Origin: an uncultured Verrucomicrobia subdivision 3 bacterium
GTDB taxonomy: Bacteria > Verrucomicrobiota > Verrucomicrobiia > Limisphaerales > UBA11358
Direction of reading: 5' to 3'
Length of the DNA stretch: 64,000 bases
Assembly (NCBI GenBank): GCA_903865745.1
Contig: CAIPKV010000012.1
Span: 10,953-74,952 of the forward strand
Part shown: piece after piece, positions 3,886 through 49,646 of the stretch
Position numbering within the stretch: the first letter of the stretch is position 1
How the letters are laid out: each line of letters opens with the position of its first letter
Made by a program: the position numbers and the translations under genes
Notes under the pieces: model-generated
What the model was told of the DNA's origin: nothing
The model's input: only the letters and a program-made list of their open reading frames with translations
Database searches by the model: none

Positions 3886-4137
3886 CAGGGGGCAACTACC
3901 GATTTCTCCGCTTTTTTCGTCAAAAACTGCGTTTATTCGTCAAAAACTCACTATTCCATGACCTGCCACCAACGCTACATCTCGTTGGAGAGGGAGTTGC
4001 CGCTGGCGACGGGATTGGCCGGACGCTAAACTGGGTCAACGAGGGTGGGTGTAGGTTAGGAAGTGGGTGGGTAGCTAAGCGGTATTGAATCCTGAACTTG
4101 AGCAGATGGCTACGCAGCCGTGAATAACCTCGGTAAA

Positions 4138-4166
4138 AGTGGTGCGCGCGAGAGGACTTGAACCTC
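4138..4166 (-). other. att site: 29-bp duplicate of the tRNA-Leu 3' end
   Basis: AGTGGTGCGCGCGAGAGGACTTGAACCTC is identical at 4138-4166 and 12726-12754. Confidence 0.95.
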
Positions 4167-7565: not shown

Positions 7566-8815
7566 GGTAACAGCAATGCTTGATAAAATTTGTTTCCGGC
7601 AATCGGATTTTGGTCAATCCACAGATACGGGCTGGACGTGAGAAGCACCGTTGCCCGTGTCGTCCATGTGCTTAAATCCGGCGACGATTGGATTTGATAT
7701 GTGCGGCCAACAACGCCGCTGATCGTGATGCCCGCAAAAGTGCCAATGCCGAGATTTGCGCCGGAAACCACTTGTGGTTGCGGATTGAATGAGATTTGCC
7801 GGATACGCTGATTGCCGGTGTCGGCAACAAAGATTGAACCTTGCGATAAACACAAACCGCTCGGATTGCTGAACAGTGCGAGATTTCCAGCACCATTGGT
7901 GTAGCCGGTTTGTGTGAAGCTGCCCGCCATCGTCACGACATTTGATAACACATTCATTTTTCTAATTGAACTTCCCGGAACACCGCTTGCAAAAATCACA
8001 TTGCCAGAACCGTCAACGCACATTTGAGAAATGGAATAGAACACGGCATTTGTGCCAGTGCCATCTGTATTATGCGCGTAAGGACTGCCATAGTTTCCGG
8101 CAATCGTTGTGACATTTTGAGTTTGATCAATTTTGCGAATTAAGTGATTTCCAGAATCCCAAACATATATGTTGTCAGCGGAATCAGTAGCCAATGCAGC
8201 GGGAGAGTTGAACGCTGTAAAAATTCCATTCCCGTCTGCATAACCACTGTTTCCAGAACCGGCGAACACGCTCAAAACGGTATTGGTGGCGTATCGGTAA
8301 ATTTTATTTCCTGAAGAAACATAAATGTTTCCCGCAGAATCGGAACAAACACCCATTAAAATACCACTGAAACTGCTAAAATTAGTATATGTGACGACTG
8401 CGCCAGCGGTGATTTTGTAAAGATAGTCAACGATTCCAGGCGTGGTTGCCCATATCGTGTTATTTTTGTCAACCGTCATACTACCAATGCCATACGTCGT
8501 TAGATTAACATTTGTTCCAGTTCCTTGAGCATTGCCGCCACCGCCCGCAAAAGTTGTAACGGTTCCATCTGGTGCAATTTTTCTGATTCTGTAATTGCCG
8601 GAATCCCAAACGAAAAGGTTGCTGTGTGAATCGGCGACAATCGCATTTGGATTATTGAACATCGTCAACTGGCCAACGCCGTCCAGATAACCCGAAAAGC
8701 CAGAACCGGCAAAGGTTTGAACAACTTCGTTGTTCGTGTCGTATGTCTGCGCGTGGGCGTGCCAGCCAAATGAAGCCATGACCGCCGCTAGAACCGCCAT
8801 GATTTTTGTTTTCAT
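7562..8815 (-). CDS. Secreted NHL-repeat (beta-propeller) protein
   Basis: Signal peptide from ATG 8815, repeated FAGSG..GY.DG.G..A.FN.P units, C-terminal YQIQ...KFYQ domain. Confidence 0.88.
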   Translation of the reverse strand: MKTKIMAVLAAVMASFGWHAHAQTYDTNNEVVQTFAGSGFSGYLDGVGQLTMFNNPNAIVADSHSNLFVWDSGNYRIRKIAPDGTVTTFAGGGGNAQGTGTNVNLTTYGIGSMTVDKNNTIWATTPGIVDYLYKITAGAVVTYTNFSSFSGILMGVCSDSAGNIYVSSGNKIYRYATNTVLSVFAGSGNSGYADGNGIFTAFNSPAALATDSADNIYVWDSGNHLIRKIDQTQNVTTIAGNYGSPYAHNTDGTGTNAVFYSISQMCVDGSGNVIFASGVPGSSIRKMNVLSNVVTMAGSFTQTGYTNGAGNLALFSNPSGLCLSQGSIFVADTGNQRIRQISFNPQPQVVSGANLGIGTFAGITISGVVGRTYQIQSSPDLSTWTTRATVLLTSSPYLWIDQNPIAGNKFYQALLLP

Positions 8816-9169
8816 AATTCGCCGCTTGCGTCGCCGGTTCCGCTGCCAATAAAAAGGGCGCACTTACTCACGCCCTGAATCAGGCACTGGTATGCCTTGC
8901 AAGAACGCTTTCGGCACGCCCAGCTTTGGGCGTGCTTCAAACGCTGTCTTGCTTATGAAATTACCAGTTTCGATTCAGACAGCAGCCGAAGCCGCAAATT
9001 TTTTGTTGTGTGTTTTCCGGTCTAGTTTTTTTAGCTGACGATGCGATTAAACCACCAAAGCCGGGCGGATACAATACCCGTTTTGCCAGCGTCCGCGCCC
9101 GCGTGCGCGAGTCATCTAGCGCGATAACATTTGCAGGATTTCAGCGTGGGTTGAAAAGTAGCGGAAATT

Positions 9170-9493
9170 TCATTTCGCATTGTCGCCGTAGATGAATTTC
9201 AAATCGGCGTGCATTTTATTCAGCAATGTTTGAGGTAGTCCCGCGCGCACGCGCGCGAGCCGTGTATCAGTGCCGGTATTTGTGCCGGTGACAAAAGCAA
9301 TGTAGCGGTCGCATTGCCGCCACTGGACGTTGAATTTATCCCTGACGGCACGGTGGATTTCCGTCTTGGTTGCGCCCGCGTCCAGCATCCGCGCCACGTA
9401 GCCGCGCCGCTGGTCAATTTCACTCTGACTGCCCTTGCGGTAATAGTGACGCTGGCCGTGGCGGATGAATCGGCGTTTGGGAATCTTAATCAT
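9170..9493 (-). CDS. Small basic HTH-like hypothetical protein
   Basis: VARMLDAGATKTEIHRAVRDKFNVQWRQCDRY resembles an HTH; in the element's minus-strand operon. Confidence 0.5.
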   Translation of the reverse strand: MIKIPKRRFIRHGQRHYYRKGSQSEIDQRRGYVARMLDAGATKTEIHRAVRDKFNVQWRQCDRYIAFVTGTNTGTDTRLARVRAGLPQTLLNKMHADLKFIYGDNAK

Positions 9494-9584
9494 TTCATCT
9501 TTAGATTTAGAAATTCAGTATTCATGCGACATTATTTTACCACCCGCCACTTGAACTTCTTTCTATTCCTTAAAGAGTGAGCAA

Positions 9585-9989
9585 TCATGCGCCATCCTCA
9601 TTTGCACAACGCTGTGCAGCAATTTCACTACGTTGTGCGATAGATTCACAACGTAACAGGGTGTAAGCGGACGGTATGCGGAAGTTTTGGTTCGTCTTGC
9701 TCCGCGCAATTTCCACCAGTCCGATAAACTCAAGATCGTTCAGTCTGTCAAAAACAGTGCGCCGCGACAGACAACACTTGCCGCCAATTTTATCCATTGA
9801 CACCATAAAATCGTTCGACTGTTCATCGCTGGCGATTTCACAAAGTGCCAGATATACGGCGAGTGCTGATTTCGCATCCTCGCACCGCGTCCGAATTTTT
9901 TCGAGCGCGGCCTTGTTCACCCATGCCCACGCGCCATCTTTCATCGTGCGTTCGGCTGGTTTGCCTTCCGGCGGTGACGTAAATTTCAT
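9585..9989 (-). CDS. Winged-HTH protein (phage replication-initiator N-terminus-like)
   Basis: ALAVYLALCEIA...SMDKIGGKCCLSRRTVFDRLNDLEFIGLV. Confidence 0.6.
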   Translation of the reverse strand: MKFTSPPEGKPAERTMKDGAWAWVNKAALEKIRTRCEDAKSALAVYLALCEIASDEQSNDFMVSMDKIGGKCCLSRRTVFDRLNDLEFIGLVEIARSKTNQNFRIPSAYTLLRCESIAQRSEIAAQRCANEDGA

Positions 9990-9995
9990 GCCGCC

Positions 9996-10610
9996 TCATT
10001 CCTTCGTCAGTGCATCAAACTGCCGCTGTGCGTCGTTGCACCTTTCCCGTAAATAATTTATTTCACGGCGCGTAATTTTTCCGCCTTTCGAGAATCGAAG
10101 GCCGATAACGGCCTTGAATAATGTGTCACAAATTAGATTTCCTGTGTCTTGTGGTTCACCTGATATGAAATCAAAAAAGGTCTTTGCGTCCATTGGCGCG
10201 TCGAGCAAAGGGTCGGCCAAATCAGGTTTGGGAAACAGGGAGAAAATTTCTTCAATCGCCACAATTCCCCTGTTGACACTCGCGTCCAGCCGGGCGGCTT
10301 GTTCAGCGCGCGACTCATTTTTTGGTTCGGATAATAGGAGATATGCCCCTGACAAATCCGAAACATTTGCGGATTTCAGCCGGTCTTTTTCTTCAAAACA
10401 CCGGACGTAATTTTGTGCGGTTCGTTCGGTGATTGTCAGATTGGCTTTAAGCCACGGCAACCATTCGCCGTGTTTCAATCCGGCCTTGATGCCAGATAGC
10501 AGTTCGCCGATTTTAATGGCCTTGTCGAGAGTGCCGCGTGCTGCGTCCAGAATTTCGGAATGTAACTTTTTAATTTCCGACACGGTTTGAAGCGAGTTTG
10601 AATTTTTCAT
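9996..10610 (-). CDS. DUF3102-domain protein
   Basis: AIKIGELLSGIKAGLKHGEWLPWLKANLTITERTAQNY. Confidence 0.8.
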   Translation of the reverse strand: MKNSNSLQTVSEIKKLHSEILDAARGTLDKAIKIGELLSGIKAGLKHGEWLPWLKANLTITERTAQNYVRCFEEKDRLKSANVSDLSGAYLLLSEPKNESRAEQAARLDASVNRGIVAIEEIFSLFPKPDLADPLLDAPMDAKTFFDFISGEPQDTGNLICDTLFKAVIGLRFSKGGKITRREINYLRERCNDAQRQFDALTKE

Positions 10611-12646: not shown

Positions 12647-12727
12647 GCGACGGTCAGCGGTTCGGGCGATATTTTGTGCAAACTCTGTGCAAACATTTTG
12701 AGAATCGCCTGTTTTTTCAATAAATAG

Positions 12728-12812
12728 TGGTGCGCGCGAGAGGACTTGAACCTCCAATCCTTACGGAACCAGATCCTAAGTCTGGCGTGTCTGCCAATTC
12801 CACCACGCGCGC
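12728..12812 (-). tRNA. tRNA-Leu(TAG), 85 nt
   Basis: GCGCGCG acceptor stem, CCAGA-CTTAGGA-TCTGG anticodon arm, long variable arm, GGTTCAAGTCC T-loop, encoded CCA. Confidence 0.97.
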
Positions 12813-15281: not shown

Positions 15282-15343
15282 TAGAGGGGCGTGTCTCATA
15301 TCAGCCCAATAAACATTGGCTTGTATTGTTGTCAATTTTCTTG

Positions 15344-15372
15344 TTGACCCCCGCCTTGACCCCCATCATAAT
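15344..15372 (+). promoter_or_regulatory. Sigma70-like promoter TTGACC-N17-CATAAT for the integrase, overlapping a TTGACCCCC direct repeat
   Basis: -35 at 15344-49, -10 at 15367-72, predicted +1 about 15379 (the A of ATG); TTGACCCCC at 15344 and 15356. Confidence 0.6.
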
Positions 15373-15378
15373 AAACCC

Positions 15379-16428
15379 ATGAAAACGACGAATTCCGACT
15401 TGTGGGAGCACGTTGAGACCAACCTGATACGGTATAAGCCGACTGGCGGCTACTATGTGAAGGCGAAGGTTCACGGCAAGAAGGTGCGGGAATCACTCAA
15501 CACTGACAAGCTCCCTGACGCACGGCGACAGGTTTCCGCCTGGCTGGCTCGTGTCCGAGGCGGCAGCACCCACGTCCGATCCGGCTTGTTGATGCAGACG
15601 CCGATTGAGGAATGGAAGAACTGGATCAACAACAAGGTGCAGGCACCACGCACGCGCGAATGCCGGCTGGACAACTGGCGAGTTGTCATCGAGCCCACCT
15701 GGCCACACCTGGCGACGACCAAAATTAACTCCGTGACCAGGCATGATGTCGAGAGCTGGCGGGACGGGCTGATTACGAAGCACAAATACTCCGTATCACA
15801 GGCCAACCAATGCCTAGGCACATTGAAACAGATTTTCAGGATAGCGGAGAACAAAGGGATGCTGTTGCATGATTCGCCGGCAGCTAGGGTGAAGCAGCTC
15901 AGGCAGCCGGCAAAGAAGTTGGTATTACCCACCAAAGCCGATTTCGCCAAGCTCCGGGCGGTAGTCTATGGCCGAAGCCCTAGGGGAGGCGAGCTGTTCG
16001 ATTTCCTGAGCCTCAGCGGAGCGCGTATTGACTCCGCAAACCACGTCACCTGGGGAAACGTGGACTGGACGGCGAACAAGCTCCACTTCACCGTGGCTAA
16101 GCGTGGAGGATACAGCATACCGCTATTTGCCCCGCTGAAGGCCTTCCTGTTGAAGATACGGCCACCCAGCCAGAAGGCGGACACCAAGGTCCTGAAGGTG
16201 AAGAGCATTAAGAAAGTTTTAGGCAATAGCTGCCGATGGATGGGAATACACCATCTTAGCCACCACGATTTGAGGCACTGGTTTGCCACACGAGCCATTG
16301 AGCAAGGCGTGGACATCCCCACCCTTAGCCGGTGGATAGGCCACAAAGACGGCGGAGCGCTGGCGCTGAGGGTGTACGGGCACCTACGGGACGAACATAG
16401 CCAGACCGAAGCACTGAAAATAACATGA
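15379..16428 (+). CDS. Tyrosine recombinase/integrase
   Basis: SGARIDS, HHDLRH, WIGH and VYGH catalytic motifs; ATG at 15379. Confidence 0.93.
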   Translation: MKTTNSDLWEHVETNLIRYKPTGGYYVKAKVHGKKVRESLNTDKLPDARRQVSAWLARVRGGSTHVRSGLLMQTPIEEWKNWINNKVQAPRTRECRLDNWRVVIEPTWPHLATTKINSVTRHDVESWRDGLITKHKYSVSQANQCLGTLKQIFRIAENKGMLLHDSPAARVKQLRQPAKKLVLPTKADFAKLRAVVYGRSPRGGELFDFLSLSGARIDSANHVTWGNVDWTANKLHFTVAKRGGYSIPLFAPLKAFLLKIRPPSQKADTKVLKVKSIKKVLGNSCRWMGIHHLSHHDLRHWFATRAIEQGVDIPTLSRWIGHKDGGALALRVYGHLRDEHSQTEALKIT

Positions 16429-16638: not shown

Positions 16639-16678
16639 CGAATCGCACACCACATGTGGTAGGAAGGAAGGGAGAGAG
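16639..16678 (+). repeat. Repeat copy A (palindrome ACCACATGTGGT plus purine tract)
   Basis: CGAATCGCACACCACATGTGGTAGGAAGGAAGGGAGAGAG. Confidence 0.9.
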
Positions 16679-16692
16679 AAGGAAAAGGACTT

Positions 16693-17019
16693 TCACAGGT
16701 CGAACGGGTCGAACGGCTTCTTGGTTCTCACGGAATCGATTTGCGCCGCTAGTGTGGAAGCCATGTCTAGCGAAGTTCCCAATAATAGGGCGATGTCGGC
16801 GTTGTTCTCAGGTCGGCATAAAATCAAAGTGAGAATTTCCTGGGCGAGAGCTTCGGCGTCCTGCTGGTCGAATTTGAAGCGCAACACGCGGACGATTTGC
16901 CTGAATTTTACCTCGTTTCGCTCCACCGACTCTTTAAGTTTGCGAACGTGCTCAGCGTGCTCGGTAAAAGCCGCGAAACTGGCAATTTGCAAGAACAGTT
17001 TTAATATATCGGTTTTCAT
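16693..17019 (-). CDS. Hypothetical protein ending FDPFDL
   Basis: 108 aa; ATGA-type coupling to the upstream gene. Confidence 0.7.
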   Translation of the reverse strand: MKTDILKLFLQIASFAAFTEHAEHVRKLKESVERNEVKFRQIVRVLRFKFDQQDAEALAQEILTLILCRPENNADIALLLGTSLDMASTLAAQIDSVRTKKPFDPFDL

Positions 17020-17633
17020 TTTCCTTCGATGGCCAGTGCCTTAATCGCGCCTTCGTTTCCCTTGGCGGCAGCCAAACGCCACAATCTGACCGCCTCGCCG
17101 ATGTCCCGCTCGACACCCTGCCCATTGGCGTAGCAAACACCGAGGTTGTATTGCCCGCCGGCCATTCCATATTTTGCCTGCTCGCGCCACTCTGCGATGG
17201 CATCCTCGATACAACCAGGGCCACTGGTGACCGTCTCTCCTTTCACTTCAACTACCCACGCAAACGGAAGGTTCATCGGCTCGTGGAACGAGTCTTGGAA
17301 CGTAAGGCCAGGCCACTGGCGGCCCAAGTATACAAGCAGACTTTCCGGGGCACCATTGGCTGATTCGAACATATAGACGAGTTCGTTTTCAGTTTCGCTT
17401 TCCAGCCGACAATCTCCAATACGTCGACAGCCCCAATTGGCATAGACCCATTCGAAGTAATCTTCCTCGCCTTCAATCACCTCTTGCGGTATCGGCATCA
17501 GCGAGTCCGGGTTAAAGGCTGAGGGAGGTTCCCCCAGCCCATACGGATGACTGCCAATGGCCCGTTTCTTGAAGTGTTCCAACTCCTCCTTGTTGCCGGT
17601 AATCGTCAACACATTGTAATACCAGTTAGGCAT
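17016..17633 (-). CDS. YubB/DUF1281 ferredoxin-like domain plus Sel1 repeat protein
   Basis: MPNWYYNVLTITG, W..ANWG and FES motifs; GQYNLGVCYANGQGV Sel1 repeat; GGAGG SD. Confidence 0.8.
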   Translation of the reverse strand: MPNWYYNVLTITGNKEELEHFKKRAIGSHPYGLGEPPSAFNPDSLMPIPQEVIEGEEDYFEWVYANWGCRRIGDCRLESETENELVYMFESANGAPESLLVYLGRQWPGLTFQDSFHEPMNLPFAWVVEVKGETVTSGPGCIEDAIAEWREQAKYGMAGGQYNLGVCYANGQGVERDIGEAVRLWRLAAAKGNEGAIKALAIEGK

Positions 17634-17682
17634 AACGGCCTCCGGTTTGTTTCACGCTGATTGCTTTTAACACGTTTTTCAT
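17626..17682 (-). CDS. Putative 18-aa leader peptide MKNVLKAISVKQTGGRYA
   Basis: AGGAG SD upstream; stop overlaps the start of the next gene (ATGCCTAA). Confidence 0.35.
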   Translation of the reverse strand: MKNVLKAISVKQTGGRYA

Positions 17683-17761
17683 ATTTTCTTTTCTCCTGTC
17701 TCTCATTCTCCACTCCGCCAAACTTTCTGCTACGTGAATTTGCAACCAAATGAAAAGATGT

Positions 17762-18541
17762 TCAGCCTGGTGTTTTCGGCTCAATTCTTGACGGGTAAAT
17801 CCCCCAGTAAAACGGGTCGAAGTTCTGGATGTATTTCTCGATTTCATAGTAGGAATTGACGAACCCAGTAAAATCCTTCCACCCGGCCAGCGGTCTGCCT
17901 TTTTCGGGCGAGAAAACGAAAAGTCGCGGCTGCATGAATAGCAGCGCGCTTTCAATTTGGGGTTCCAGCCGCCGCTTGGCAGCCTCGATTTGCAACTCCA
18001 ATTCCCGTGGCTCCCGCCACAGCTTCATTGGCACCATAGTTTGGCACTTGGCGAGGCATACGACTAAGCCGTTGACGTTGTCGCTCCAGGCTTTTTCCTT
18101 TTCCGCCACCACCTTGCACCGCCAATATTCGGCGTGCCGTAGCAGCCGGTATTTTTCGATTAGCCTCGTCAATTCCACGTTTGGCTTCTGGAGGTTCTGC
18201 AGGTTGCCATTGTGATACCAGCCGCCGAACAGGATAAAGGCAGAATGGTATTCCGGGCTCAAGTTGCCCAGGGCCACGAAGAACGGCTCCAATTCAGCCC
18301 AATTTGCGACGTGAATTCTGCCGGCAATCACCCTGTATGTTTCGGCGATTTCCGCTTGGTTCGGGTCACTCGCGGCCACCAACCCACATAGGCGGGTTCG
18401 TTGCTTTCCCAAAAACTCCTGCTGATGTTTCCCCAGCGAGGTTTCGACATCCACGACAGGCTGATTATTTTTGCTGCCGGCATCGCCGACCCCGCCCATG
18501 TCGAGCTGCGGGTTGTTATTCGGAATGAGTGGAGTGTCCAT
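17762..18541 (-). CDS. Hypothetical protein
   Basis: ATG immediately after the relaxase stop; about 259 aa. Confidence 0.6.
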   Translation of the reverse strand: MDTPLIPNNNPQLDMGGVGDAGSKNNQPVVDVETSLGKHQQEFLGKQRTRLCGLVAASDPNQAEIAETYRVIAGRIHVANWAELEPFFVALGNLSPEYHSAFILFGGWYHNGNLQNLQKPNVELTRLIEKYRLLRHAEYWRCKVVAEKEKAWSDNVNGLVVCLAKCQTMVPMKLWREPRELELQIEAAKRRLEPQIESALLFMQPRLFVFSPEKGRPLAGWKDFTGFVNSYYEIEKYIQNFDPFYWGIYPSRIEPKTPG

Positions 18542-18542
18542 A

Positions 18543-19484
18543 TCAGGAGATGTCGATTTGAGGTTGCGGTTTGGTTTCCGGCGCGGCCACCACTTGCGAT
18601 TGGACGTGCCCCTGTGCCTCGCGGATGTCCTTGAGAATTTCTTGGACGTCTGCGCTGGTAAATCCCGAATCATTGAATGCTTCTTGCAGCGCTCCGGGCA
18701 ACGCTGCACTTGGGTTTATTATGGTTGTCATGTTTTCTGTTGGGTTTTCTCCCCAGCCCACCGCACCGGCTTGACCGGTGAGCAGACCGAGGAAATTGAT
18801 GAGCGTGGCCAGCCGGATGCGGCGGCCTTGGTACTTGAATGAAATGAGCGACCCGTCTTTGCGCGTGCGGAAGTCCGTGACTTTTCCGGCTTTGACGAGC
18901 TTGGCCCAGCGGTCTTTCCGCAGGTTTCCCTTTTCATCCAGCAGCGCCAGCGCGAGCAGACGGACATCCAGTTTTTTGGCCTTGGGATACATCGTGAACG
19001 CCTTGCCTCTGCCCCTTCCCCGACCGGAAATAAATTGGAGCGTCCAGGCAAACGACTGAAGCTCCTTGAGGAATTTCGGCCGCAAGTCGAGCGTCCGACG
19101 GCCATTGGAGTTGGAGAAAATCAGATGGATGTGCCGGGTGGAGGTGTCGCGATGCACCCAGCCCAGCATGGAGGCGATACCCATCAGCTTTTGAAAATCC
19201 TTCGCCGCCTGCAACAGTCGCCGGTCAATGTCATCGAGCTGTTCGGCCGTGGCGTTACGCGGAGTTTGGACGGATATAACTGCAGTCCGGCAGACGCGCT
19301 TGGCTCTTGGATCATGGTGGTAGGCCAGCAGCAGTTCGGCGAGTTGCCGGGGAGTTCCCCTAGCCACGCCGGCATCCAAACCGTCGTATGTGCGGGACAC
19401 CTTTTTGGTGTTGGCAAAATACTTTATGGCCTCCACCGGACGGGAGGTGGCACGCAGGTTGATGATGGCGTAGGGAGCGTTCAT
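18543..19484 (-). CDS. HUH relaxase (MOBP/VirD2-like)
   Basis: N-terminal AIKY, WVHRDTSTRHIHLIFSN His-triad motif; coupled to MobC. Confidence 0.82.
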   Translation of the reverse strand: MNAPYAIINLRATSRPVEAIKYFANTKKVSRTYDGLDAGVARGTPRQLAELLLAYHHDPRAKRVCRTAVISVQTPRNATAEQLDDIDRRLLQAAKDFQKLMGIASMLGWVHRDTSTRHIHLIFSNSNGRRTLDLRPKFLKELQSFAWTLQFISGRGRGRGKAFTMYPKAKKLDVRLLALALLDEKGNLRKDRWAKLVKAGKVTDFRTRKDGSLISFKYQGRRIRLATLINFLGLLTGQAGAVGWGENPTENMTTIINPSAALPGALQEAFNDSGFTSADVQEILKDIREAQGHVQSQVVAAPETKPQPQIDIS

Positions 19485-19765
19485 GGCCAGAGTCCTTTCA
19501 GTTTTTGCACCGCTTCATCCACCGCTTGGGCGTCCACCGAGGTGCCCCTGGACACGCGGAGCGATTGATTGATAAGCACCCCCAGGCGGCGCATCTCCGT
19601 CGCCGCCTCGACCAGCTTGCTGATGTCCAATCCCGAAGTGTGTGCCAGGACTATGAATGCCACCGTGCGACCACGAAGCCCCCGCTTAAGCCCCATAAGT
19701 TGCTCCGCCAGTTGCCGGGGAAGCCTGGCACGACCAAAGGAAACACTGGTGGTCTTGCGGTTCAT
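19481..19765 (-). CDS. mobC: MobC-like relaxosome accessory protein
   Basis: MRRLGVLINQ resembles the L.RIGNNLNQ motif; ATGA overlap with the relaxase. Confidence 0.75.
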   Translation of the reverse strand: MNRKTTSVSFGRARLPRQLAEQLMGLKRGLRGRTVAFIVLAHTSGLDISKLVEAATEMRRLGVLINQSLRVSRGTSVDAQAVDEAVQKLKGLWP

Positions 19766-19858
19766 GGCTGTCCTCCTTCAGGTGAACCAGACACCCCCGA
19801 GGCGCTGTCGGCAGGGGGAAGTCCGTCAGAGTTATGTGTGCGGCAAGCTACGCTGTTC

Positions 19859-19910
19859 TGCGCCTTCGGCGCATCACCGCTGCTTGGCAAAGGGGCATCC
19901 GCCCCCTTGC
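19859..19910. promoter_or_regulatory. Candidate oriT
   Basis: Hairpins TGCGCC-TTC-GGCGCA and GCAAAGGGG-CATCCG-CCCCCTTGC, 100-150 bp upstream of mobC. Confidence 0.45.
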
Positions 19911-20554
19911 GACCCTGGTTGCTGGCCGCCGATGCGGCCAGAGCAGCCTCCACCGCCCGCCCGACATTAGGGGCGGAGACGGTGCGTTCGATGACGCGGA
20001 GGCATCCCTTGAGCACATCGGCTTCGATGACCTGTAGGGCGGCCGCAGGAAGCCTGATTGCGCCAATGACAGTGAGTCTGGCGCGGATCAGCGCCGACAG
20101 CGTGGGAGATGATTTATGAGTGGACATCCCTTCGTTGTAATAGAAGGGGGGGTGTCTGTTCCTAAACTATTTTGAAAAATCTTTTGGGGAAGTGTTATAG
20201 ACAGTCGCAGCCCTCGATAGTTGCCCCTTGGGCTTGCGCCCAGGCAAACAAATCGGGTCGGGACGTTGAACAGACTTTTGGGGATCTCGTAAGCGAGCGG
20301 GGTGATGACAACGAAGTCTGACCGAAATGCCGGCAGCACGCCGCGTGTAGCTTGCAGACTGTGAGCCCAAACCTTTTGGTGCAGCTCAGGAACTCCCCCG
20401 TCTGCCAATTGGCCTGACGCCAGGATTGAAACTGTTCATGGGCGTCAGTCTGAAGTCGGTTGCTAAATATCATAAGCATCGTACAGACATTATGAACGGC
20501 AGGGGGTGTCAGTTGCCGCAGAAACTGAGTTGTTAGAGTGCAACGTGCTCTCGA

Positions 20555-20593
20555 CGAATCTCACACCACATGTGGTAGGAAGGAAGGAGAGAG
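20555..20593 (+). repeat. Repeat copy B
   Basis: CGAATCTCACACCACATGTGGTAGGAAGGAAGGAGAGAG; one substitution and one indel versus copy A. Confidence 0.9.
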
Positions 20594-20627
20594 TAAAGTT
20601 CTGTCTCTAGCGTCATTCCTTTTAGGG

Positions 20628-21038
20628 TTAGAGGTCGAACGGGTCGAACGGTGCCCCGATATTTCGCGCAGCAAATTCTCGGACTATGACTTCGCGCCGG
20701 TCGGCAGGAATCATGTCCCATTTACTCGGGTCACAATTTTCAGGTAACGCCAAATTGTTTAGGCGGCACCACTCATGCAATTCGACCAAAAACGTTACAA
20801 CCCAAAACAATCCCTGTGGCGATGAACGAATTATTTCACCGGCGACTTTTATCCATTCTGGGTTAATCGCCCATTTGGATGTTTCCTTTTTCCGGCAAAA
20901 AGGCGAGTGACCGGTATGACTATCATCATGGTTAAAGTCCTCTGCGTAGTAATGTTCGCAGAGCTCATCACTCACTTCGGTTTCCGGGTCTAATTTGCGC
21001 GGAAGGGTTCTGAATTGGTCTCGCACAGGTTGATTCAT
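20628..21038 (-). CDS. Hypothetical protein ending FDPFDL (paralogue of 21049-21516)
   Basis: ELCEHY, SKWAIN and WCRLN..L.LP..CDPSKWDM motifs shared with the neighbour. Confidence 0.75.
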   Translation of the reverse strand: MNQPVRDQFRTLPRKLDPETEVSDELCEHYYAEDFNHDDSHTGHSPFCRKKETSKWAINPEWIKVAGEIIRSSPQGLFWVVTFLVELHEWCRLNNLALPENCDPSKWDMIPADRREVIVREFAARNIGAPFDPFDL

Positions 21039-21048
21039 GGCGTGTCCT

Positions 21049-21516
21049 TTATTTATGGCTGGCGACTTCCCAGTCGCTGTTTAGCGCCAGACCTTCCAAT
21101 ATGGCTTCGCGCTGTTCGCCGGACAGCATGTCCCATTTGCTGGGGTCGCAATCGTCAGGCAGCTCAAGCCCGTTCAGGCGGCACCACGCTTTCAGCTCGA
21201 CCAAAAACTTGACGACGCTCTCCACCTCATCTTCTGTGCATTGTTTCCTTTCGTAATCTGTGCCGGCCAGCTTCCGCATGAAGCCTTTTTCCACGCAGAC
21301 TTCCACCAGCCATTCCCGGTTAATCGCCCATTTCGATTTCCCGCTCCTCGCGTTTAACGGCCAGCAGGGAATTTTTTTGTCTGCCCAATCAATCCAGCTT
21401 TCAGCGGCGTAATGTTCGCAGAGTTCGCGCAGCGCTTCAGCCTCCGGTTCAATTATACGGGGACGAGTGGCGGATTGGTTCAGTTTTAGTTTTGTCGTCG
21501 AGGCGGTGTTTTTCAT
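21049..21516 (-). CDS. Hypothetical protein (paralogue of 20628-21038)
   Basis: Same shared motifs. Confidence 0.75.
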   Translation of the reverse strand: MKNTASTTKLKLNQSATRPRIIEPEAEALRELCEHYAAESWIDWADKKIPCWPLNARSGKSKWAINREWLVEVCVEKGFMRKLAGTDYERKQCTEDEVESVVKFLVELKAWCRLNGLELPDDCDPSKWDMLSGEQREAILEGLALNSDWEVASHK

Positions 21517-21638: not shown

Positions 21639-24600
21639 TCAGGAAAAGTGCTCGCGCGCCTTGTCGAGAAACACCGGTAGCATCGTCCGCCGTTCGGGAT
21701 TGTTGTCAGGGTGAATGCACTCTTCCAAGGTTTCCCGCACACAGAGCAGAATACATTTCTTTCGGCATCGGCTGACGGCGGTATAGAGCCAGCGCCGGTT
21801 GGTAACGAGCGATTTGGTCATCACCACGATGCCGGTGTCGCACTCCACGCCCTGGGAAGAATGTCCGGTGCGGCACCACGGCCAGTCCACCTCGTCGAGT
21901 GTCAACCAGCCCACATTCTTCGAGCCATCGGCAGCCTTGTATGTGACTTGAATGGTGTCCGAGGCTTGCCCTGTGGTTACAGTGTCATCATAGACCGTCA
22001 CCAAGCTACCCTTTCGTATCTGGTAGGCAGCGGCCTTTGCCCCGACCTCCACCACCGCCAAAACATCACCTTTTTTGAAATCAAAAATCGTGGACTTATT
22101 GTGGCCAGCCGCCGCCCGCGCCATTTGGAGAATGTTCGAGTTCACCTTGAAGATGTCCGTGTGCCGAGGACAAAAGACCATGAAATTGGATTCCGGTGGA
22201 AGTGCGGTCACAAATCCGGCCGCCGCTTGCATGACCAGGAACTCGCTGGTCATATAATGCACCTCCATGCCTTGCCCGATTTTTCCCGGTACTTGGCCGA
22301 GATGGACTTGTTCAAAAAAATCAACAATGCCGCTGGACAGATGGTTGCTGGTTCGCCAATTGTGCGACAGCTGCGTCCCGGTCACTCCGGGTGTGCCGGG
22401 ATTTCTCTGTACCCACCTGACCAGGTCTTCCCCCACCAAACCCGGCCCGACCGGCATGTTTTGACCCGGCCCGACCGTGAGCAGCACGCGCTTGCCGGGA
22501 GCCCAGCTCATCGCCATCTGACCGGCCACGTCGCAATCCACCTGCCCAATCTCATCCCCGGCGAACACGTCGGCGTCCAAGGCGACGAAGCGTTTCTTTT
22601 GCTTGTGGGGCCTGATGTGATAGGTGGAGTGAATCGTTTCCACGGCCACGCGCTTATTGAGCCGTTCTCGCAGTTGCTGGGCACTTAAATGAGTGGCGCT
22701 GCCCACCCTTGTGACCAGCTTTTTATTCCGCGCAGCCTTCAACTCATTGGCGAGCGTTTCCGTCTTGCCGGTGCCGGGCGCACCGCTGATGACCTCGACG
22801 GAACCGCCGCCGGCACCTTGTTCAATGATCCGCCAGGCGAAGCGCAGTTCCCCGCGAACATAGTCGGCCCACCCGACCCAATCGCCTTTTTCGGGCACCC
22901 AGGCATTGCAGGAAAGGACATGCCGGGAGGCCAGCAGCCAATGCAATGACTGCAACAACCCTTCGTTGCCGAAAATCGCGATGAGCAGGTCGTAAAGGTG
23001 GCTGGACGAGTGGTACACGTCCCCATTTTCAGCCAGCCAAACTCTGACAAGTTCCAACAATAAATCACGCGGTAGCACTTCGTCATCAAACGGGTTTTTG
23101 AATTTCTGGGCGGCAGCGTGTTCCCTGTCCAGAGTTGCAAGCAGGTTGGTAAAACGCGGGTCGCCCTTCAAACGCTGTCGGATTTCCTTTTCGGTAATTG
23201 CCGGACGGGCGGGCGGAGTCTGGCTCTCCATTTGCCCGATTGCCAGCAGCGCCTCCATCGGCTTGAGTTTTTTCTTCTGGGGTTTCCGTGGTCTGGCTGC
23301 TGGGGTGTCATCGCAACTCATGGCGTCAATAATGTCGGGTGGCAGTTTGGAATAAATCTCGATGTTCTTTGAGCTGTCGCTGGCATCAGGCGAGTCCTCT
23401 GGTTTTGCAGGCCTGAGAAAGAACCAGACCGGGGCATCCCATTGGCTCTTGCGACCACGTTTTACCACGATGAAACCCATTTCCTTTAGTGCATCCCGGA
23501 CTGAGGTTTCTCCGTACGTCGTATGGGGGAGCACTTGAGAGATATGGAAGGTCATCTGTCCGCACTTCAGCACCGCCTTTTCCACCGCTGCCAGCACGGC
23601 ATCCGTTTCCCGAGCATATTTCTCGTAACAGCGTTCGATGTCCCGTTCCGTCCAGTCCTGCCAGGTCGCATATTTATTATGCGGAGCACCGTTCAACAAA
23701 AGCGCTTCGTTAAACGCCTTCTCGATTTCATCCAGTACCGGCTTGAATTCGGGAAGGGCAAAAACCAATTGTTTCGCCTTCCCCACTTTTACGCCCCGGT
23801 CCCAAAGAGACTTCCAGGACAGCAGGCAATTGATGTAAAGCCGCGTTCGGTCAGCCCTGTATTTGGTCATCGAGAGGTATTTTCCGCCGGAGCTGCGCGG
23901 CCCGATTTCCCGGCCTAGGTCTTTGCAAAATGTATTGAACGCCTTTTGCGGCAGGTCATTGAAGAGCTTTTGCACCCAAGCCAGGGGTTTCCCCAACACC
24001 TTCGCGATTTTTTCCTCTGACACGTTGTAGGCGCGCAACTGTAAAGCAGACACCTGCTCGCTCAACCCAGCCAGGCTGCCGCCCTGTTTACCCTGCTTGC
24101 CTTTGGCCGGCTTAGCTTGTGGCATCACCGAAATGGCGTCCTTGATGGTCTGGATTTCGACGTTGCCCATGAGCTTCTCCGGTCGCCAAAATGCAAAGGA
24201 TTCCAGGAATCGGGAGGGCCGGTTGCAATTCTTTGAAGCTCCTTCATCCAGACTAAGCGGCCCGGCATAGCCATTTGATTTAATTTCATCCCACAGACAG
24301 TACACGACCAGCTTGGCATCTTCCGTATCCACCCAGTCCGCAAAATAAATTCCGGCATGCACCCCGTTGGGCGTCTGGCCCGCCCAGGCGACCTCCGGAA
24401 TTTTTTCCAGCACGTTCAGCAGTTCGGCCTTTTCGCCGGGAGTCGCGCCCCGCCCCTTGACCCATTCGCCCTGGGCATTCTGCTTCTGTATTTCAAAATC
24501 CAATGTAAGGTCATGCCGCTTGCCGGGATTGATAGAACGATGCTTTCCCCGCTTTTGTTTTTCAATTTCAACTGGTTTGTCCGGGTCATCCCGCCGCCGC

Positions 24601-24836
24601 GCCTTGTCCAACAACTCCGGTGAAAAAATCGCGTTGACGTAGTACTCGAACTTGTAACCGCGAATTTTTAGCGCCCGGGAGTAGAGTTGAAAATTCCGCA
24701 ACTTGGTAATCTTATTTTGCGACACGAATACTTCGCCACGGGTGAGCTGCTGAATTTTCTGAATGTGCAGGTGCGAACCACCCAAGACAGGTGCGGTTGG
24801 TGGCGCTGACGGGGCGGATGGCGTGGTGGTGGACAT
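21639..24836 (-). CDS. AEP-type primase fused to a RecD-like SF1 helicase
   Basis: LTLDFE, QTPNGVH and LDEGASKNCNRPSR (AEP-like); SGAPGTGKT, GDEIGQ, TGHSSQGVE and LYTAVSR (RecD-like). Confidence 0.75.
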   Translation of the reverse strand: MSTTTPSAPSAPPTAPVLGGSHLHIQKIQQLTRGEVFVSQNKITKLRNFQLYSRALKIRGYKFEYYVNAIFSPELLDKARRRDDPDKPVEIEKQKRGKHRSINPGKRHDLTLDFEIQKQNAQGEWVKGRGATPGEKAELLNVLEKIPEVAWAGQTPNGVHAGIYFADWVDTEDAKLVVYCLWDEIKSNGYAGPLSLDEGASKNCNRPSRFLESFAFWRPEKLMGNVEIQTIKDAISVMPQAKPAKGKQGKQGGSLAGLSEQVSALQLRAYNVSEEKIAKVLGKPLAWVQKLFNDLPQKAFNTFCKDLGREIGPRSSGGKYLSMTKYRADRTRLYINCLLSWKSLWDRGVKVGKAKQLVFALPEFKPVLDEIEKAFNEALLLNGAPHNKYATWQDWTERDIERCYEKYARETDAVLAAVEKAVLKCGQMTFHISQVLPHTTYGETSVRDALKEMGFIVVKRGRKSQWDAPVWFFLRPAKPEDSPDASDSSKNIEIYSKLPPDIIDAMSCDDTPAARPRKPQKKKLKPMEALLAIGQMESQTPPARPAITEKEIRQRLKGDPRFTNLLATLDREHAAAQKFKNPFDDEVLPRDLLLELVRVWLAENGDVYHSSSHLYDLLIAIFGNEGLLQSLHWLLASRHVLSCNAWVPEKGDWVGWADYVRGELRFAWRIIEQGAGGGSVEVISGAPGTGKTETLANELKAARNKKLVTRVGSATHLSAQQLRERLNKRVAVETIHSTYHIRPHKQKKRFVALDADVFAGDEIGQVDCDVAGQMAMSWAPGKRVLLTVGPGQNMPVGPGLVGEDLVRWVQRNPGTPGVTGTQLSHNWRTSNHLSSGIVDFFEQVHLGQVPGKIGQGMEVHYMTSEFLVMQAAAGFVTALPPESNFMVFCPRHTDIFKVNSNILQMARAAAGHNKSTIFDFKKGDVLAVVEVGAKAAAYQIRKGSLVTVYDDTVTTGQASDTIQVTYKAADGSKNVGWLTLDEVDWPWCRTGHSSQGVECDTGIVVMTKSLVTNRRWLYTAVSRCRKKCILLCVRETLEECIHPDNNPERRTMLPVFLDKAREHFS

Positions 24837-25045: not shown

Positions 25046-25080
25046 TCTCCCTTCCTCCGCACCACATGTGGTGGGCGATT
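25046..25080 (-). repeat. Repeat copy C (inverted relative to A and B)
   Basis: Reverse complement AATCGCCCACCACATGTGGTGCGGAGGAAGGGAGA; 31/35 identical to copy A. Confidence 0.88.
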
Positions 25081-25126: not shown

Positions 25127-26380
25127 TCATGGCAGTTTGAATAGAGGGACGGTTTGTTCCTCGATTCCAGCCCTTTTGCTTTGCTTTGGCTTAGGTGCTG
25201 TTAGAGGTTTTTTTGGCTTCGGCGGGGGCAAAGGTGTCCCTACATCTACGAGATTATCGACGGCAACTCCCAAGGAATACAATTTGCTTCTTAACAGGTC
25301 GTGTTCGGCTACCAATTCCATCGCCTTGCCCATGATTACGCCGCCATGATCGGTGGGGACATCGAGTTTCTTTTGGACGGAGCGTTTTTTTCTTTCCTCA
25401 TAAGCTGCCACATGGACGTAATTGACCTTCACTGTGCCTGCCAATTTCTTGAATTTATTTAGCCGTGCTTGAAGGTCGCTCCCGAAATAGCTGATTTCAG
25501 GGCCAATTACTTTCATGTCATTTGTGTCGTATTCGAAGGTTTCGATTCGGCTGAAGCTCTGTGGCGGGCCATCCGCCTTAACAACTCTCTCATCGTTTCC
25601 AAAAGCTAAGTCTCGAATTATCGGGGCCAAATATTTTTGCTTCCCGACATAGGCCGTGAAATCAAAACCCGGCGGGGAGTCTCGAATGTCCGCAATCGTT
25701 TTGAACGACGGCTTGCCGGACTTTAACAATCGCTCGGTGACATCGCCTACGCCGGGAATTTCGTTCACATCCAGCGGTGGTAAAATTGCGTCCCAGTCTT
25801 TGTCGTAGATGACGTTGATGCCGTCCGGGGCTTTTTGGTCGGTGGCAATCTTCGCCATCATCATATTTGAAGCAATGCCAATTTTGCAGTGCAGCTTCCG
25901 TTCCCGAAGGATTCGCACTTTGAGTTTTTCAGCCACCGGACGGGCCAGGTTCAAAGATTCGTCGGAAGTGGAGGCCTGGCAATAGGGGGTCAAATCGATG
26001 TACGCCTCATCCAATCCGACCGTTCCGATGGCCGGGTTGGTAATTCCCATTGCTGTCAGCTCGTCCTTGGTTAATTTGATGATTTCATCCGCCTCGTCCT
26101 CATAGGCCAGGGTTCTTGGGAGCAGCCAGGTCGCCGTCGGGCAGAGTTTGGCTGCCTGCAATGATGGCATTCCCTTCTTAACGCCAAAGTCTCTCGCCTC
26201 GGGGGTGGCCGTGGAAACCACCTTGCGCCGTCTTTTTTTTCCGACGATGACCGGCTTGCCCACCAGGTCAGGATGGTCCCGCAATTCCACCGACGCGAAA
26301 AAAGAGTTCATATCGAAAATCAGGATCACCCGGTATTTGAAATTGGCCGGGGGCGCTGAAGTTGTGACACAGGCGCTCAT
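25127..26380 (-). CDS. dinB: Y-family DNA polymerase IV
   Basis: FDMNSFFASVE, EARDFGVKKGM, GLDEAYID, PGVG HhH; C-terminal QTVPLF clamp-motif-like tail. Confidence 0.92.
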   Translation of the reverse strand: MSACVTTSAPPANFKYRVILIFDMNSFFASVELRDHPDLVGKPVIVGKKRRRKVVSTATPEARDFGVKKGMPSLQAAKLCPTATWLLPRTLAYEDEADEIIKLTKDELTAMGITNPAIGTVGLDEAYIDLTPYCQASTSDESLNLARPVAEKLKVRILRERKLHCKIGIASNMMMAKIATDQKAPDGINVIYDKDWDAILPPLDVNEIPGVGDVTERLLKSGKPSFKTIADIRDSPPGFDFTAYVGKQKYLAPIIRDLAFGNDERVVKADGPPQSFSRIETFEYDTNDMKVIGPEISYFGSDLQARLNKFKKLAGTVKVNYVHVAAYEERKKRSVQKKLDVPTDHGGVIMGKAMELVAEHDLLRSKLYSLGVAVDNLVDVGTPLPPPKPKKPLTAPKPKQSKRAGIEEQTVPLFKLP

Positions 26381-26387
26381 GCAATTT

Positions 26388-27947
26388 TCAGGGACTGCAT
26401 AACAATGCTGCCGCCGCCCGGATGCCTTCGTGGGCGTTTTTATTTTTGGCAATTGCCCGTGCCAGGTTCGCATTTTTTCCATCGCTGAGCCGGTTGAATA
26501 CCTGCGCCAGAATTTCAGGGTTTGTTATTTTTTCCGTTGCGATTGCCACCACATCCAAATTGGCATCCGTTAACGCCACTTTTTCCAATACATCCTGGGC
26601 GATGATGTCTCTCTTTACCGCCGCCTCACGAACGTTCAGCTCTTCGTCAAATGCAAGCTTGCCCAGAGTGCCCGGTTCTTTGGTCCGGCAAGCCACGATT
26701 TCTCTGAAATCAGGAACCTCACTGCTGGCAAATTTTTCCAAAACCTCCTCTGGCAGCCGTCGGCTTTGCAGGGCTTCAATCGCTTCGTGTGGCTCTCCAT
26801 TCAGCGCAATTCTGGCCACGGTTTCCGGCTTAACTTTTCTATTATGAACGATGTTATTAACGACATATTGACCAGGTTGGTCGGCAAATTCATCCAGGAT
26901 TTCAGGCGTGACGTCAGAACGCGAAACCACCCTATGTCGGCATATCCAATCTGTGTCCAGCCTCGGAAGCTGTTTGGCTATTTCTATGGGCAGCGCTTCA
27001 TTTTCAATTAGAGATTCAAGGATGTCTGTGCCCGAAAGCGGATAATTATTGATGTCCAGTCGTCCCGAAAGGAAGTCATCCGCCATTCGCGCAATTAACT
27101 TTTTGTCTTTGACTTCCCGGGCAGCAGCCAGCGTTTCTATTTCATTCAGCCCCCAACAGTGACCGTTAACCACCAGCGGCCAGTGTTTTCTCCAGTCGGC
27201 GTCGCGCGGCATCTCTTTGTTGTTCAGGTACACCGCATATTTTTCTCCATACTTATCACATAAGCTCCGCAGCACAGCGGGGTCTGTCACTCGATTGGCG
27301 TGTGACGCTGCCAAATCCAGATGCCTTCGCCCAATTTCGTTTATGACCGCCGTAGGCGTATGCTTATTATGGCAAATTGAAGACAAAACATTTTTATCAT
27401 CACATTTTGCCAGCATCCGAAGTGTCTCCGGGGAGTGGGTCAGGGTTGCCACGGCCCCTCTTATCTTCGGTTCCACATCGCTTGCAAAGCGGTCAATAGT
27501 TTCTTGTGCGAGCCTCCTGCTAAAAAGAGCTTCATAGGTCACATCTGGATCTGAGTGGCGAGCCAGTTTTTCAATTGTCTCCAACCTGGTGTTTGGGTTT
27601 TCGACGATCGAACGAATCCAGCAGCAGTTCCCAAATGCCGCCCATTTATCCAGCTCTTCAGGAGGCGCGTCTGTTCTCTTGCATAAATAGTAAGGGGGCT
27701 GCCAATGCTTTTTCCCGTATTTCGCCAATTCGTTGGCCTTTTCAAAAGGCAGAACTAAGTTTCTCACCAACATACCTATTAATTCGCCGCCATCAGTGAT
27801 GGGTTTGGCCAACAACTCATCAGCCATGCGGCATACTGTATCCAATTCTTTGGCTAGAAACGCGGCCTCTTTCGAGTGCACATCGTCAAGGCCCCAGGTC
27901 CAACCCTCGACCACAATAGGCTGTTCCGATTGCGGGGTAGCACTCAT
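26388..27947 (-). CDS. HEAT/LRV-like alpha-solenoid repeat protein
   Basis: Repeated NPNT..ETIEKLA..D..V..A units. Confidence 0.65.
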   Translation of the reverse strand: MSATPQSEQPIVVEGWTWGLDDVHSKEAAFLAKELDTVCRMADELLAKPITDGGELIGMLVRNLVLPFEKANELAKYGKKHWQPPYYLCKRTDAPPEELDKWAAFGNCCWIRSIVENPNTRLETIEKLARHSDPDVTYEALFSRRLAQETIDRFASDVEPKIRGAVATLTHSPETLRMLAKCDDKNVLSSICHNKHTPTAVINEIGRRHLDLAASHANRVTDPAVLRSLCDKYGEKYAVYLNNKEMPRDADWRKHWPLVVNGHCWGLNEIETLAAAREVKDKKLIARMADDFLSGRLDINNYPLSGTDILESLIENEALPIEIAKQLPRLDTDWICRHRVVSRSDVTPEILDEFADQPGQYVVNNIVHNRKVKPETVARIALNGEPHEAIEALQSRRLPEEVLEKFASSEVPDFREIVACRTKEPGTLGKLAFDEELNVREAAVKRDIIAQDVLEKVALTDANLDVVAIATEKITNPEILAQVFNRLSDGKNANLARAIAKNKNAHEGIRAAAALLCSP

Positions 27948-48325: not shown

Positions 48326-48724
48326 TAATTAAAGTTTTTCAGATTTATAAATTCACTGGCTTAAATTGTCGGGAAGTTTTTTAGGGCTTGAAATAATCCG
48401 CCGACGGCCTTATTCGGTAGCGCAGCTTGATAACCATCAAAGCCCAAACTACGCCGCGCAGCGCCACGCGGTATTTTCGGAGCACCTTTCGCACAACGAT
48501 TATTACTCGCAAAAGAGCAAGACCGTTGGCCGATGGTATGGCCGCACCTGTGCCGATTTCGGAATCGAGCAAAATTCAGTTTTCTTTGCGCGTGAAGCGA
48601 TCGCCGTTTGCGGGCGCGAATCAATTGTTTTATTTTCACATCTAATTGCTGCTATAAATCTGCCCGTGAAAGTTCAAGCCTTCGTATTCTGCGGCTGTTA
48701 CGAACATGGTTGCGCTAAATGCCC

Positions 48725-49385: not shown

Positions 49386-49646
49386 TTACAAATCGAAAGG
49401 GTCAAAGGTTTCGAGAGGTTTTGGTTTTTTGCTCTCTTTGACATCCTTTTTAACCAACTCCTTGGCAGTTTGGTTTGGTTTCCAAAAACTACAAAAATGG
49501 TTGTTTGCGTCCTTCAAGAACAACGCTTCAACGACATCTTCCAAACCAAGAAAGGTCATTTGCTCTTTACATGAACAGAAAAGATTGTTTTCAGGACCTT
49601 TCCTTGCGTAAACGCACCAAGTGCAATTCACCGACACAACATTCAT
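49386..49646 (-). CDS. Cys-rich small protein ending FDPFDL
   Basis: CTWC...CSC...C; C-terminus LETFDPFDL. Confidence 0.6.
   Translation of the reverse strand: MNVVSVNCTWCVYARKGPENNLFCSCKEQMTFLGLEDVVEALFLKDANNHFCSFWKPNQTAKELVKKDVKESKKPKPLETFDPFDL

Follow-up and report, generated by a model that had tools for sequence, protein, structure and literature searches.

Why should three small proteins with otherwise dissimilar sequences end in the same six residues? The question is raised by a 64,000-nt stretch of DNA from an uncultured Verrucomicrobia subdivision 3 bacterium (positions 10953-74952 of contig C12 of a 3.63-Mb draft genome with 55.8% GC; the whole stretch is called the window here). 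Three of its open reading frames (ORFs), two of them in the backbone of an integrative mobilisable element recognised from Pfam matches, finish with FDPFDL directly before the stop codon. The original prediction, made from the letters of the window, took this tail for a portable C-terminal docking or targeting tag. Our analysis makes it likely that the tail is a functional peptide selected at the exact C-terminus. By analogy with phage proteins, we lean slightly towards a role in docking to a common receptor, with a motif confined to one rare lineage of such elements.

Three small proteins with one ending

The three ORFs and their ends are as first described (proteins 1, 2 and 3, Table 1), and the statement that their bodies share no visible similarity holds as well: with the last 7 residues removed, BLASTP found no similarity among them (best E 0.35 over 4 residues). 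Neither Pfam nor PHROGs contains a family for the three proteins or for the tail-less paralogue of protein 2. Word-indexed searches of 5.8e9 proteins returned near-identical copies only for proteins 1 and 3, and one real homologue for protein 2, which together with its relatives is called family A below. Protein 3 consists of a Cys-rich N-terminal part (CxxC...CxC) followed by a Lys/Pro-rich linker and then the tail. A literature search for FDPFDL or DPFDL as a peptide found nothing relevant.

The common ending is not random. From the amino-acid composition of the genome itself, the probability of FDPFDL at a given C-terminus is 2.2e-8, which for about 3,500 genes predicts about 8e-5 such ends, where three are observed. 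In a six-frame scan, [FWY]DPF[DE] occurs five times in ORFs of at least 50 codons in the whole genome, and three of these five are the L-stop ends of the window. Relaxed C-terminal patterns of the tail gave no further case in the genome, and a degenerate DNA pattern for FDP[FW][DN]L-stop matches only three genome sites, all in the window. An internal FDPF that had been pointed out near the end of the ORF at 17762-18541 is indeed present (QNFDPFYWG). It was discarded as a relative of the tail, as FDPF is found 11 times in ORFs of at least 150 amino acids (aa) against 8.7 expected, and its presence has no significance beyond chance.

Conservation of the tail as peptide and as DNA

A profile search of 1.84e9 representatives recovered four lineages of family A (protein 2, P0002, P0006 and P0007), plus the tail-less paralogue (P0005); a repetitive adhesin also returned by this search was a spurious match. 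P0002 is 66% identical to protein 2 and ends with GAPFDPFDL, P0006 is about 40% identical and ends with VKAFDPFNL, and the distant homologue P0007 ends with VVVFDPWDL. In the alignment of these tails F, D, P and L are invariant, and only positions 4 (F or W) and 5 (D or N) vary. The consensus is F-D-P-[FW]-[DN]-L-COOH, with the stop always right after the Leu, and the 5-6 residues ahead of it vary across the family (RNIGAP, RTLGAP, NTTVKA and KNIVVV). The number of synonymous substitutions per site (dS) between lineages is 1.1-2.6, that is, saturated. Retention of the tail over such distances therefore argues for purifying selection on it as a peptide.

The same family explains the paralogue. 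P0006 carries the tail although it is nearer to the tail-less paralogue than to protein 2 (nonsynonymous substitutions per site, dN, of 0.33 and 0.44, respectively). Judging from these distances, the tail is ancestral within family A and the paralogue lost it after the duplication. The absence of the tail from the paralogue had thus been correctly noted, but the modular character drawn from it is not upheld, since a loss is no evidence of modular gain. The 'DWEV' in the end of the paralogue (...SDWEVASHK) may be a decayed D-(P)-W-E-V remnant of D-P-W-D-L.

At the DNA level (Table 1), the first 20 nt of tails 1 and 2 are identical and consist of a 9-nt tandem repeat (CCGTTCGAC CCGTTCGAC). These two tails probably share their ending by descent of DNA, that is, by copying, and owing to this identity the pair is not independent evidence for conservation of the peptide. 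Over the six tail codons, tail 3 differs from tail 1 by four synonymous and zero nonsynonymous differences. P0006 and P0007 also use other codons, and the sole amino-acid changes of their tails are conservative, F to W and D to N. None of these three has a nearby palindrome in the sequence at hand.

Such a palindrome accompanies tails 1 and 2, which both lie 17-42 nt upstream of the same 35-nt repeat, made of the perfect palindrome ACCACATGTGGT and a CT-rich arm. Copies of this repeat stand at three operon ends, and the third copy has no tail-coding sequence beside it. Because its hairpin is too weak for a terminator, the repeat is probably a protein-binding site; a promoter and terminator scan around the copies gave nothing informative. 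The two copies that adjoin tail-coding ends may have promoted copying of the tail from one gene to another. In this scheme the tail would have passed between proteins 1 and 2 as DNA, just upstream of the repeat, and protein 3 would have acquired or kept its tail independently.

Recombination around the tail is also suggested by L010, an 852-nt ENA metagenome contig that carries P0002 and aligns with window positions 20540-21350. The upstream paralogue is about 96% identical between the two and the body of protein 2 about 80% (dS 0.415, dN/dS 0.42), whereas the 114 nt that comprise the tail, the spacer and the ACCACATGTGGT repeat (the tail and 90 nt downstream) are 100% identical. This pattern reads as a recombination mosaic, with a variable gene body between constant flanks. 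The tail of P0002 lies inside the block of full identity and therefore gives no independent evidence for peptide conservation either. The 13-17 other contigs with protein 2 are the same element.

Other C-terminal hexapeptides common to several ORFs of this genome have a different origin. Three unrelated ORFs end with GDWAPLN-stop (C49:27115-27176, C68:74800-74860 and C81:58505-58567) and three others with LGPRSLDHL-stop (C37:30855-30915, C54:105-165 and C82:17020-17080). In both sets the genes are truncated by an identical piece of inserted DNA, probably the end of an insertion sequence (IS), from which the final codons and the stop derive and which stays identical for at least 40 nt further. 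The copies of FDPFDL, unlike these, do not continue as identical DNA past the stop, and an IS-end artefact was rejected for them.

Distribution of the tail outside the window

A scan of 400 genomes across the host phylum gave one other match, in a chance ORF of 22 codons. With a relaxed pattern, 250 genomes of the class, 6 of them from the host genus, gave five matches, all in ORFs of 13-45 codons. We then consider a codon-restricted scan of 185,579 species genomes, in which 94 stretches matched. Among the 80 of the 94 that were listed, 46 continue with TGG and 34 with a stop; 11 of the stop matches have at least 50 open codons upstream, and about 3-5 look like genes. With about 6e8 protein ends (at about 3,200 genes per genome, our estimate) and p of about 2e-8, the matches in species genomes are at chance level. 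Three codon sets run against IMG/VR gave only two stop matches, and the TGG matches there are all an internal FDPFDLW of gp32-like single-stranded DNA-binding proteins (SSBs).

Our results showed that the tail is not a widespread tag but is private to this element lineage. The original claim of a C-terminal tag stands as regards conservation of the peptide at the exact end, the variable linker and the three unrelated bodies; its wide portability does not, given about 650 phylum and class genomes without a gene-like match and chance-level counts in the species genomes and IMG/VR. A lack of C-terminal enrichment beyond this locus, or a predominance of DNA over peptide conservation, had been named in advance as speaking against a tag. 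The former is what we found beyond the lineage. As to the latter, DNA identity explains tails 1 and 2 and the window/L010 pair, and tail 3, P0006 and P0007 point to conservation of the peptide.

Some of the matches outside the lineage deserve a description of their own. The gp32-like SSBs belong to T4-like phages (L006-L009 and L110-L120 in IMG/VR) and hold a conserved FDPFDLW within their folded core, unrelated to the C-terminal tail. One of the two stop matches in IMG/VR, in L121 (IMGVR_UViG_3300026519_000073, 8656-10281), is a terminase large subunit (phrog_2, E 5.6e-37) extended at its C-terminus by 21 residues, with the end ...THSDFDPFDL-stop; this lone case could be due to chance or represent a convergent docking tail, for instance towards the portal. 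The best gene-like match among those listed for the species genomes is a 109-aa zinc-ribbon protein of a Yoonia sp. metagenome-assembled genome (L069:1120-1449, NZ_DASYOK010000248.1), which has a long Pro-rich acidic linker and the end ...SGNFDPFDL-stop. Its layout of Cys-rich head, linker and tail recalls protein 3. The gene lies in a phage-like or plasmid-like region and adjoins genes for a HerA/FtsK-like ATPase, an SLT transglycosylase and a fibre-like protein; tblastn of this look-alike against phages gave no match.

Candidate receptors, rival explanations and known systems

The element genes are all on the minus strand, the integrase excepted (Table 1). The gene of protein 1 closes the relaxase operon; it is translationally coupled to the Sel1-repeat gene, with a 4-nt overlap (ATGA) between its start and the stop of that gene. 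Two paralogues stand in tandem after the primase-helicase gene, and the second of them, in the same reading frame as the helicase, encodes protein 2. This neighbourhood recurs in other lineages: in L013, which encodes P0007, the tail-bearing gene directly follows the C-terminus of a homologous helicase, and on a 5.7-kb ENA contig the gene of P0006 has upstream of it a large gene truncated by the contig end (809 aa), by its position a putative counterpart of the helicase. A helicase-based search for related loci in the collection of genome contigs found none.

Table 1. Coordinates of the tail-bearing proteins, their tail codons, the associated repeat and the genes of the element
Feature	Position	Strand	Description
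Tail-bearing protein 1	16693..17019	-	108 aa, predicted all-helical, orphan; end ...RTKKPFDPFDL-stop
Tail-bearing protein 2 (family A)	20628..21038	-	136 aa; end ...NIGAPFDPFDL-stop
Tail-bearing protein 3	49386..49646	-	86 aa, orphan; end ...KPLETFDPFDL-stop
Paralogue of protein 2, without tail	21049..21516	-	155 aa; end ...NSDWEVASHK-stop
Tail 1 codons	16693..16716	-	CCG TTC GAC CCG TTC GAC CTG TGA (P-F-D-P-F-D-L-stop)
Tail 2 codons	20628..20651	-	CCG TTC GAC CCG TTC GAC CTC TAA; L010 identical
Tail 3 codons	49386..49409	-	ACC TTT GAC CCT TTC GAT TTG TAA
Tail codons of L012 (P0006)			GCG TTT GAC CCG TTC AAC CTG TAA
Tail codons of L013 (P0007)			GTG TTC GAT CCT TGG GAT TTG TAG
35-nt repeat with palindrome ACCACATGTGGT	16641..16675		direct; 17 nt downstream of protein 1 stop
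ACCACATGTGGT repeat, second copy	20557..20587		direct; about 40 nt downstream of protein 2 stop
ACCACATGTGGT repeat, third copy	25046..25080		inverted; 47 nt downstream of DinB stop
Tyrosine integrase	15316-16428	+	Pfam
MobA/VirD2-like relaxase	18543-19484	-	Pfam; end ...KPQPQIDIS, without tail
Sel1-repeat protein	17016..17633	-	205 aa; candidate peptide-binding receptor
Primase-helicase, SF1 helicase core	21639..24836	-	1065 aa; candidate receptor
DinB-type polymerase	25127-26482	-	end ...EEQTVPLFKLP
519-aa protein in replication/DinB operon	26388..27947	-	candidate peptide-binding receptor
NADAR protein		-	element gene, Pfam

About 28 kb from the other tail genes, at 49.4 kb, the gene of protein 3 occupies a patch of low GC content flanked by a sigma70-r4-like gene and an IS transposase. 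The former (48719-49336, plus strand) is convergent with it and encodes a 205-aa protein with a sigma-70 region-4 helix-turn-helix (Pfam), followed by two repeats that by eye resemble the C-terminal domain of the RNA polymerase alpha subunit (NGLSNRLNHLLAKAGF... and NGLSYRTNNVLKYAGI...). Beyond 31 kb the window also holds an MmeI-type restriction-modification gene, a NERD nuclease, an RHS protein and others. The linker region of the primase-helicase contains, at residues about 575-585, an internal ...QKFKNPFDDEVLP... with a vague resemblance to the tail (PFD and acidic residues). Elsewhere in the window, a 32-nt direct repeat with 97% identity (4135-4166 and 12723-12754) corresponds to the 3' end of a tRNA-Leu gene (12728-12812, minus strand); as att sites, its two copies probably mark the ends of a second integrated island, from about 4.2 to 12.7 kb.

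In the reading that we favour, F-D-P-[FW]-[DN]-L-COOH would be a short linear motif for docking, in which a hook of acidic and aromatic residues sits on a short linker that is variable or rich in Lys and Pro. Through this hook, small island proteins without other relationship would be tethered to the same pocket of one receptor. Such a pocket would recognise the free carboxylate and the Leu that bears it, together with both aromatic residues; F-D-L-COOH would also pass as a class II PDZ ligand (hydrophobic-x-hydrophobic-COOH) by its sequence. Binding to a partner is proposed by analogy with the tails of T4/RB69 gp43, gp33 and gp55 and of T7 gp2.5 and gp4. Candidate receptors within the element would be the primase-helicase, the Sel1-repeat protein and the 519-aa protein, which looks repeat-rich and has weak LRV/HEAT-like matches (those to LRV and FliG_M in Pfam are sub-threshold). 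A receptor encoded by the element seems more likely than the host beta-clamp, because the motif is private to the lineage, being unused by the host, its congeners and other genomes of the phylum, and is linked to the helicase gene.

Several points weigh against this docking reading. Its binding partner rests on analogy, and the single-chain AlphaFold2 models are too poor for a fold search, with a predicted local distance difference test score (pLDDT) of 56 for protein 1 from its single sequence and of 50 for family A from a 4-sequence alignment. As proteins 1 and 3 are orphans beyond near-identical copies, family A is the one family in which the tail is seen to persist over evolutionary distance. 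The identical DNA in tails 1 and 2 and in the 114-nt L010 block removes both from the independent evidence, the case for unrelated carriers consists of three genes in one genome, and outside the lineage the hexapeptide appears at C-termini at about the chance rate. The evidence base is thus small (three genes and four homologue lineages), and the proposal is for now a testable hypothesis, not a discovery.

A bolder form of the docking reading can be formulated, which we regard as speculative and hold to be unlikely. The element family might use the tail as a private address that plugs fast-evolving small 'heads' into a repeat-protein receptor or its own primase-helicase, the address being passed between genes as a 3'-end DNA cassette adjoining the ACCACATGTGGT repeat. 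The heads might serve as anti-defence factors or regulate replication. Related to this idea, two elements with flanks of 96-100% identity have only 80% identity in the body of protein 2. If true, an adaptor system with variable heads and a constant tail would exist outside phages.

The rival explanation that survives best is that the tail binds the beta-sliding clamp of the host, so that the small proteins are loaded onto the clamp or compete for its hydrophobic cleft; we consider it a live alternative, albeit one of low probability. Bacterial beta-clamp-binding motifs take the form QL[SD]LF or QLxLxL, in which hydrophobic residues at positions 4 and 5/6 fill subsite I, and the hexapeptide class of E. 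coli includes QLVLGL and QLSLPL. The tail is likewise a short C-terminal peptide, hydrophobic at positions 4 (F) and 6 (L), and its hydrophobic-x-hydrophobic-COOH end matches the last three residues of the E. coli hexapeptide class. The host has a single DnaN, and the tail-bearing family sits in a replication module beside DinB. The alternative is kept because PFDPFDL-COOH has its nearest look-alike in LFDMFDF-COOH of the RB69 polymerase, a ligand of gp45, which is however a different clamp; a search of the host genome for a gp45-type clamp (PF02916) gave no match, and the control search likewise matched nothing anywhere. The tail begins with F-D and has neither the Gln at position 1 nor the aliphatic residue at position 2, whereas DinB of the element carries the canonical QTVPLF, so the local clamp reads the ordinary motif. 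No protein of the host or of the about 650 related genomes has such a tail, which would be odd for a universal hub. If the partner were the host clamp after all, an unusual Gln-less motif would be added to the clamp binders.

The original prediction had compared the tail with SSB tails as well as with clamp motifs, and the tail departs from both consensus sequences. The tip of bacterial SSBs is D-D-D-[IL]-P-F. The SSB of the host ends with ESDDVPF and so keeps the DDVPF form of this tip, while FDPFDL ends with D-L and has its P-F inside; a mimic of the SSB tip was ruled out on this basis.

Somewhat more doubtful than the clamp is a C-terminal degron by which a protease or unfoldase of the host or of the element would remove the three proteins together and keep them short-lived. 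Proteins of mobile elements are often under proteolytic control, an exact C-terminal position with a free carboxylate is typical of C-terminal degrons, and the tail-less paralogue could be the stable version. Known bacterial C-terminal degrons (ssrA LAA-COOH, MuA RRKKAI) are, however, non-polar or basic, and acidic residues near the end inactivate ssrA-type tags. The tail departs from the ssrA-like pattern (non-polar LAA-COOH, no acidic residues) with Asp at -1 and -4; its acidic character is unlike the known types, and again no host protein carries it.

A translocation signal, read by the coupling protein of a helper conjugative system so that the small proteins travel with the mobilised DNA to the recipient, is clearly improbable. 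Unrelated substrates of VirB/D4 systems are recognised by a common C-terminal signal, and the type IV secretion substrates VirE2, VirF and VirD5 resemble our case in being dissimilar proteins of a transfer element with a common C-terminal signal. The element has a MobA/VirD2-like relaxase and the window has no mating-pore genes, and weak matches to type IV coupling proteins were found on other contigs of the genome. Those contigs, and the rest of the genome, contain no tailed protein, however; VirB4 (PF03135) was not found, the relaxase itself ends with ...PQIDIS, and the family A gene goes with the helicase instead of the mobilisation operon. Known signals of this type are moreover Arg-rich, basic and about 20 or more residues long, whereas the tail has six acidic-aromatic residues.

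The least probable explanation makes the ending a by-product of events in the DNA that has no role as a peptide, either a 3'-end segment beside the ACCACATGTGGT repeat copied through recombination or a cis-acting site (the tandem CCGTTCGAC CCGTTCGAC): the shared nucleotides of tails 1 and 2, the L010 mosaic and the inserted hexapeptides of this genome speak for it, but the synonymous differences among the tails largely refute it, and the third repeat without a tail and a stop directly after Leu in six independent sequences also speak against it.

If docking on a common receptor is correct, the six-residue peptide would be a handle with which to fish out the central machine of the element, and three orphan proteins would be assigned to one pathway. 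The logic would be that of phages T4 and T7, which use common C-terminal hooks to assemble unrelated proteins on one hub. In T7, the acidic C-terminal tails of gp2.5 (SSB) and gp4 (primase-helicase) dock on the gp5 polymerase. These tails and the SSB tip resemble ours in that an acidic-aromatic hook at the C-terminus brings several proteins to a single component of the replisome, and the setting is also similar, with the family A gene directly after the primase-helicase gene. They end, however, in Phe after an acidic run, whereas the tail described here ends in F-D-L and has only two acidic residues.

The nearest look-alikes are the clamp-binding C-termini of T4-type phages. The RB69 DNA polymerase (gp43) ends with ...EKKASLFDMFDF, and the peptide KKASLFDMFDF was crystallised on the gp45 clamp; gp43, gp33 and gp55 of T4/RB69 have interchangeable hydrophobic-acidic C-termini and all bind gp45 (PMC2988020). 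F-D-M-F-D-F of RB69 is nearly superimposable on F-D-P-F-D-L: LFDMFDF and PFDPFDL are both F-D-x-F-D-hydrophobic-COOH and both come after Lys residues. In both cases unrelated proteins of one mobile genome carry a short hydrophobic and acidic sequence at the extreme C-terminus, and a divergent linker separates body and epitope, as in family A and protein 3. The tail described here differs by its middle Pro and terminal Leu, by having three known carriers and by residing in an integrative mobilisable element instead of a phage. We know of no described example of this common-hook logic, with an element-private motif, in an integrative mobilisable element of an environmental bacterium. The principle is known from T4 and T7; what would be unusual here is the type of carrier.

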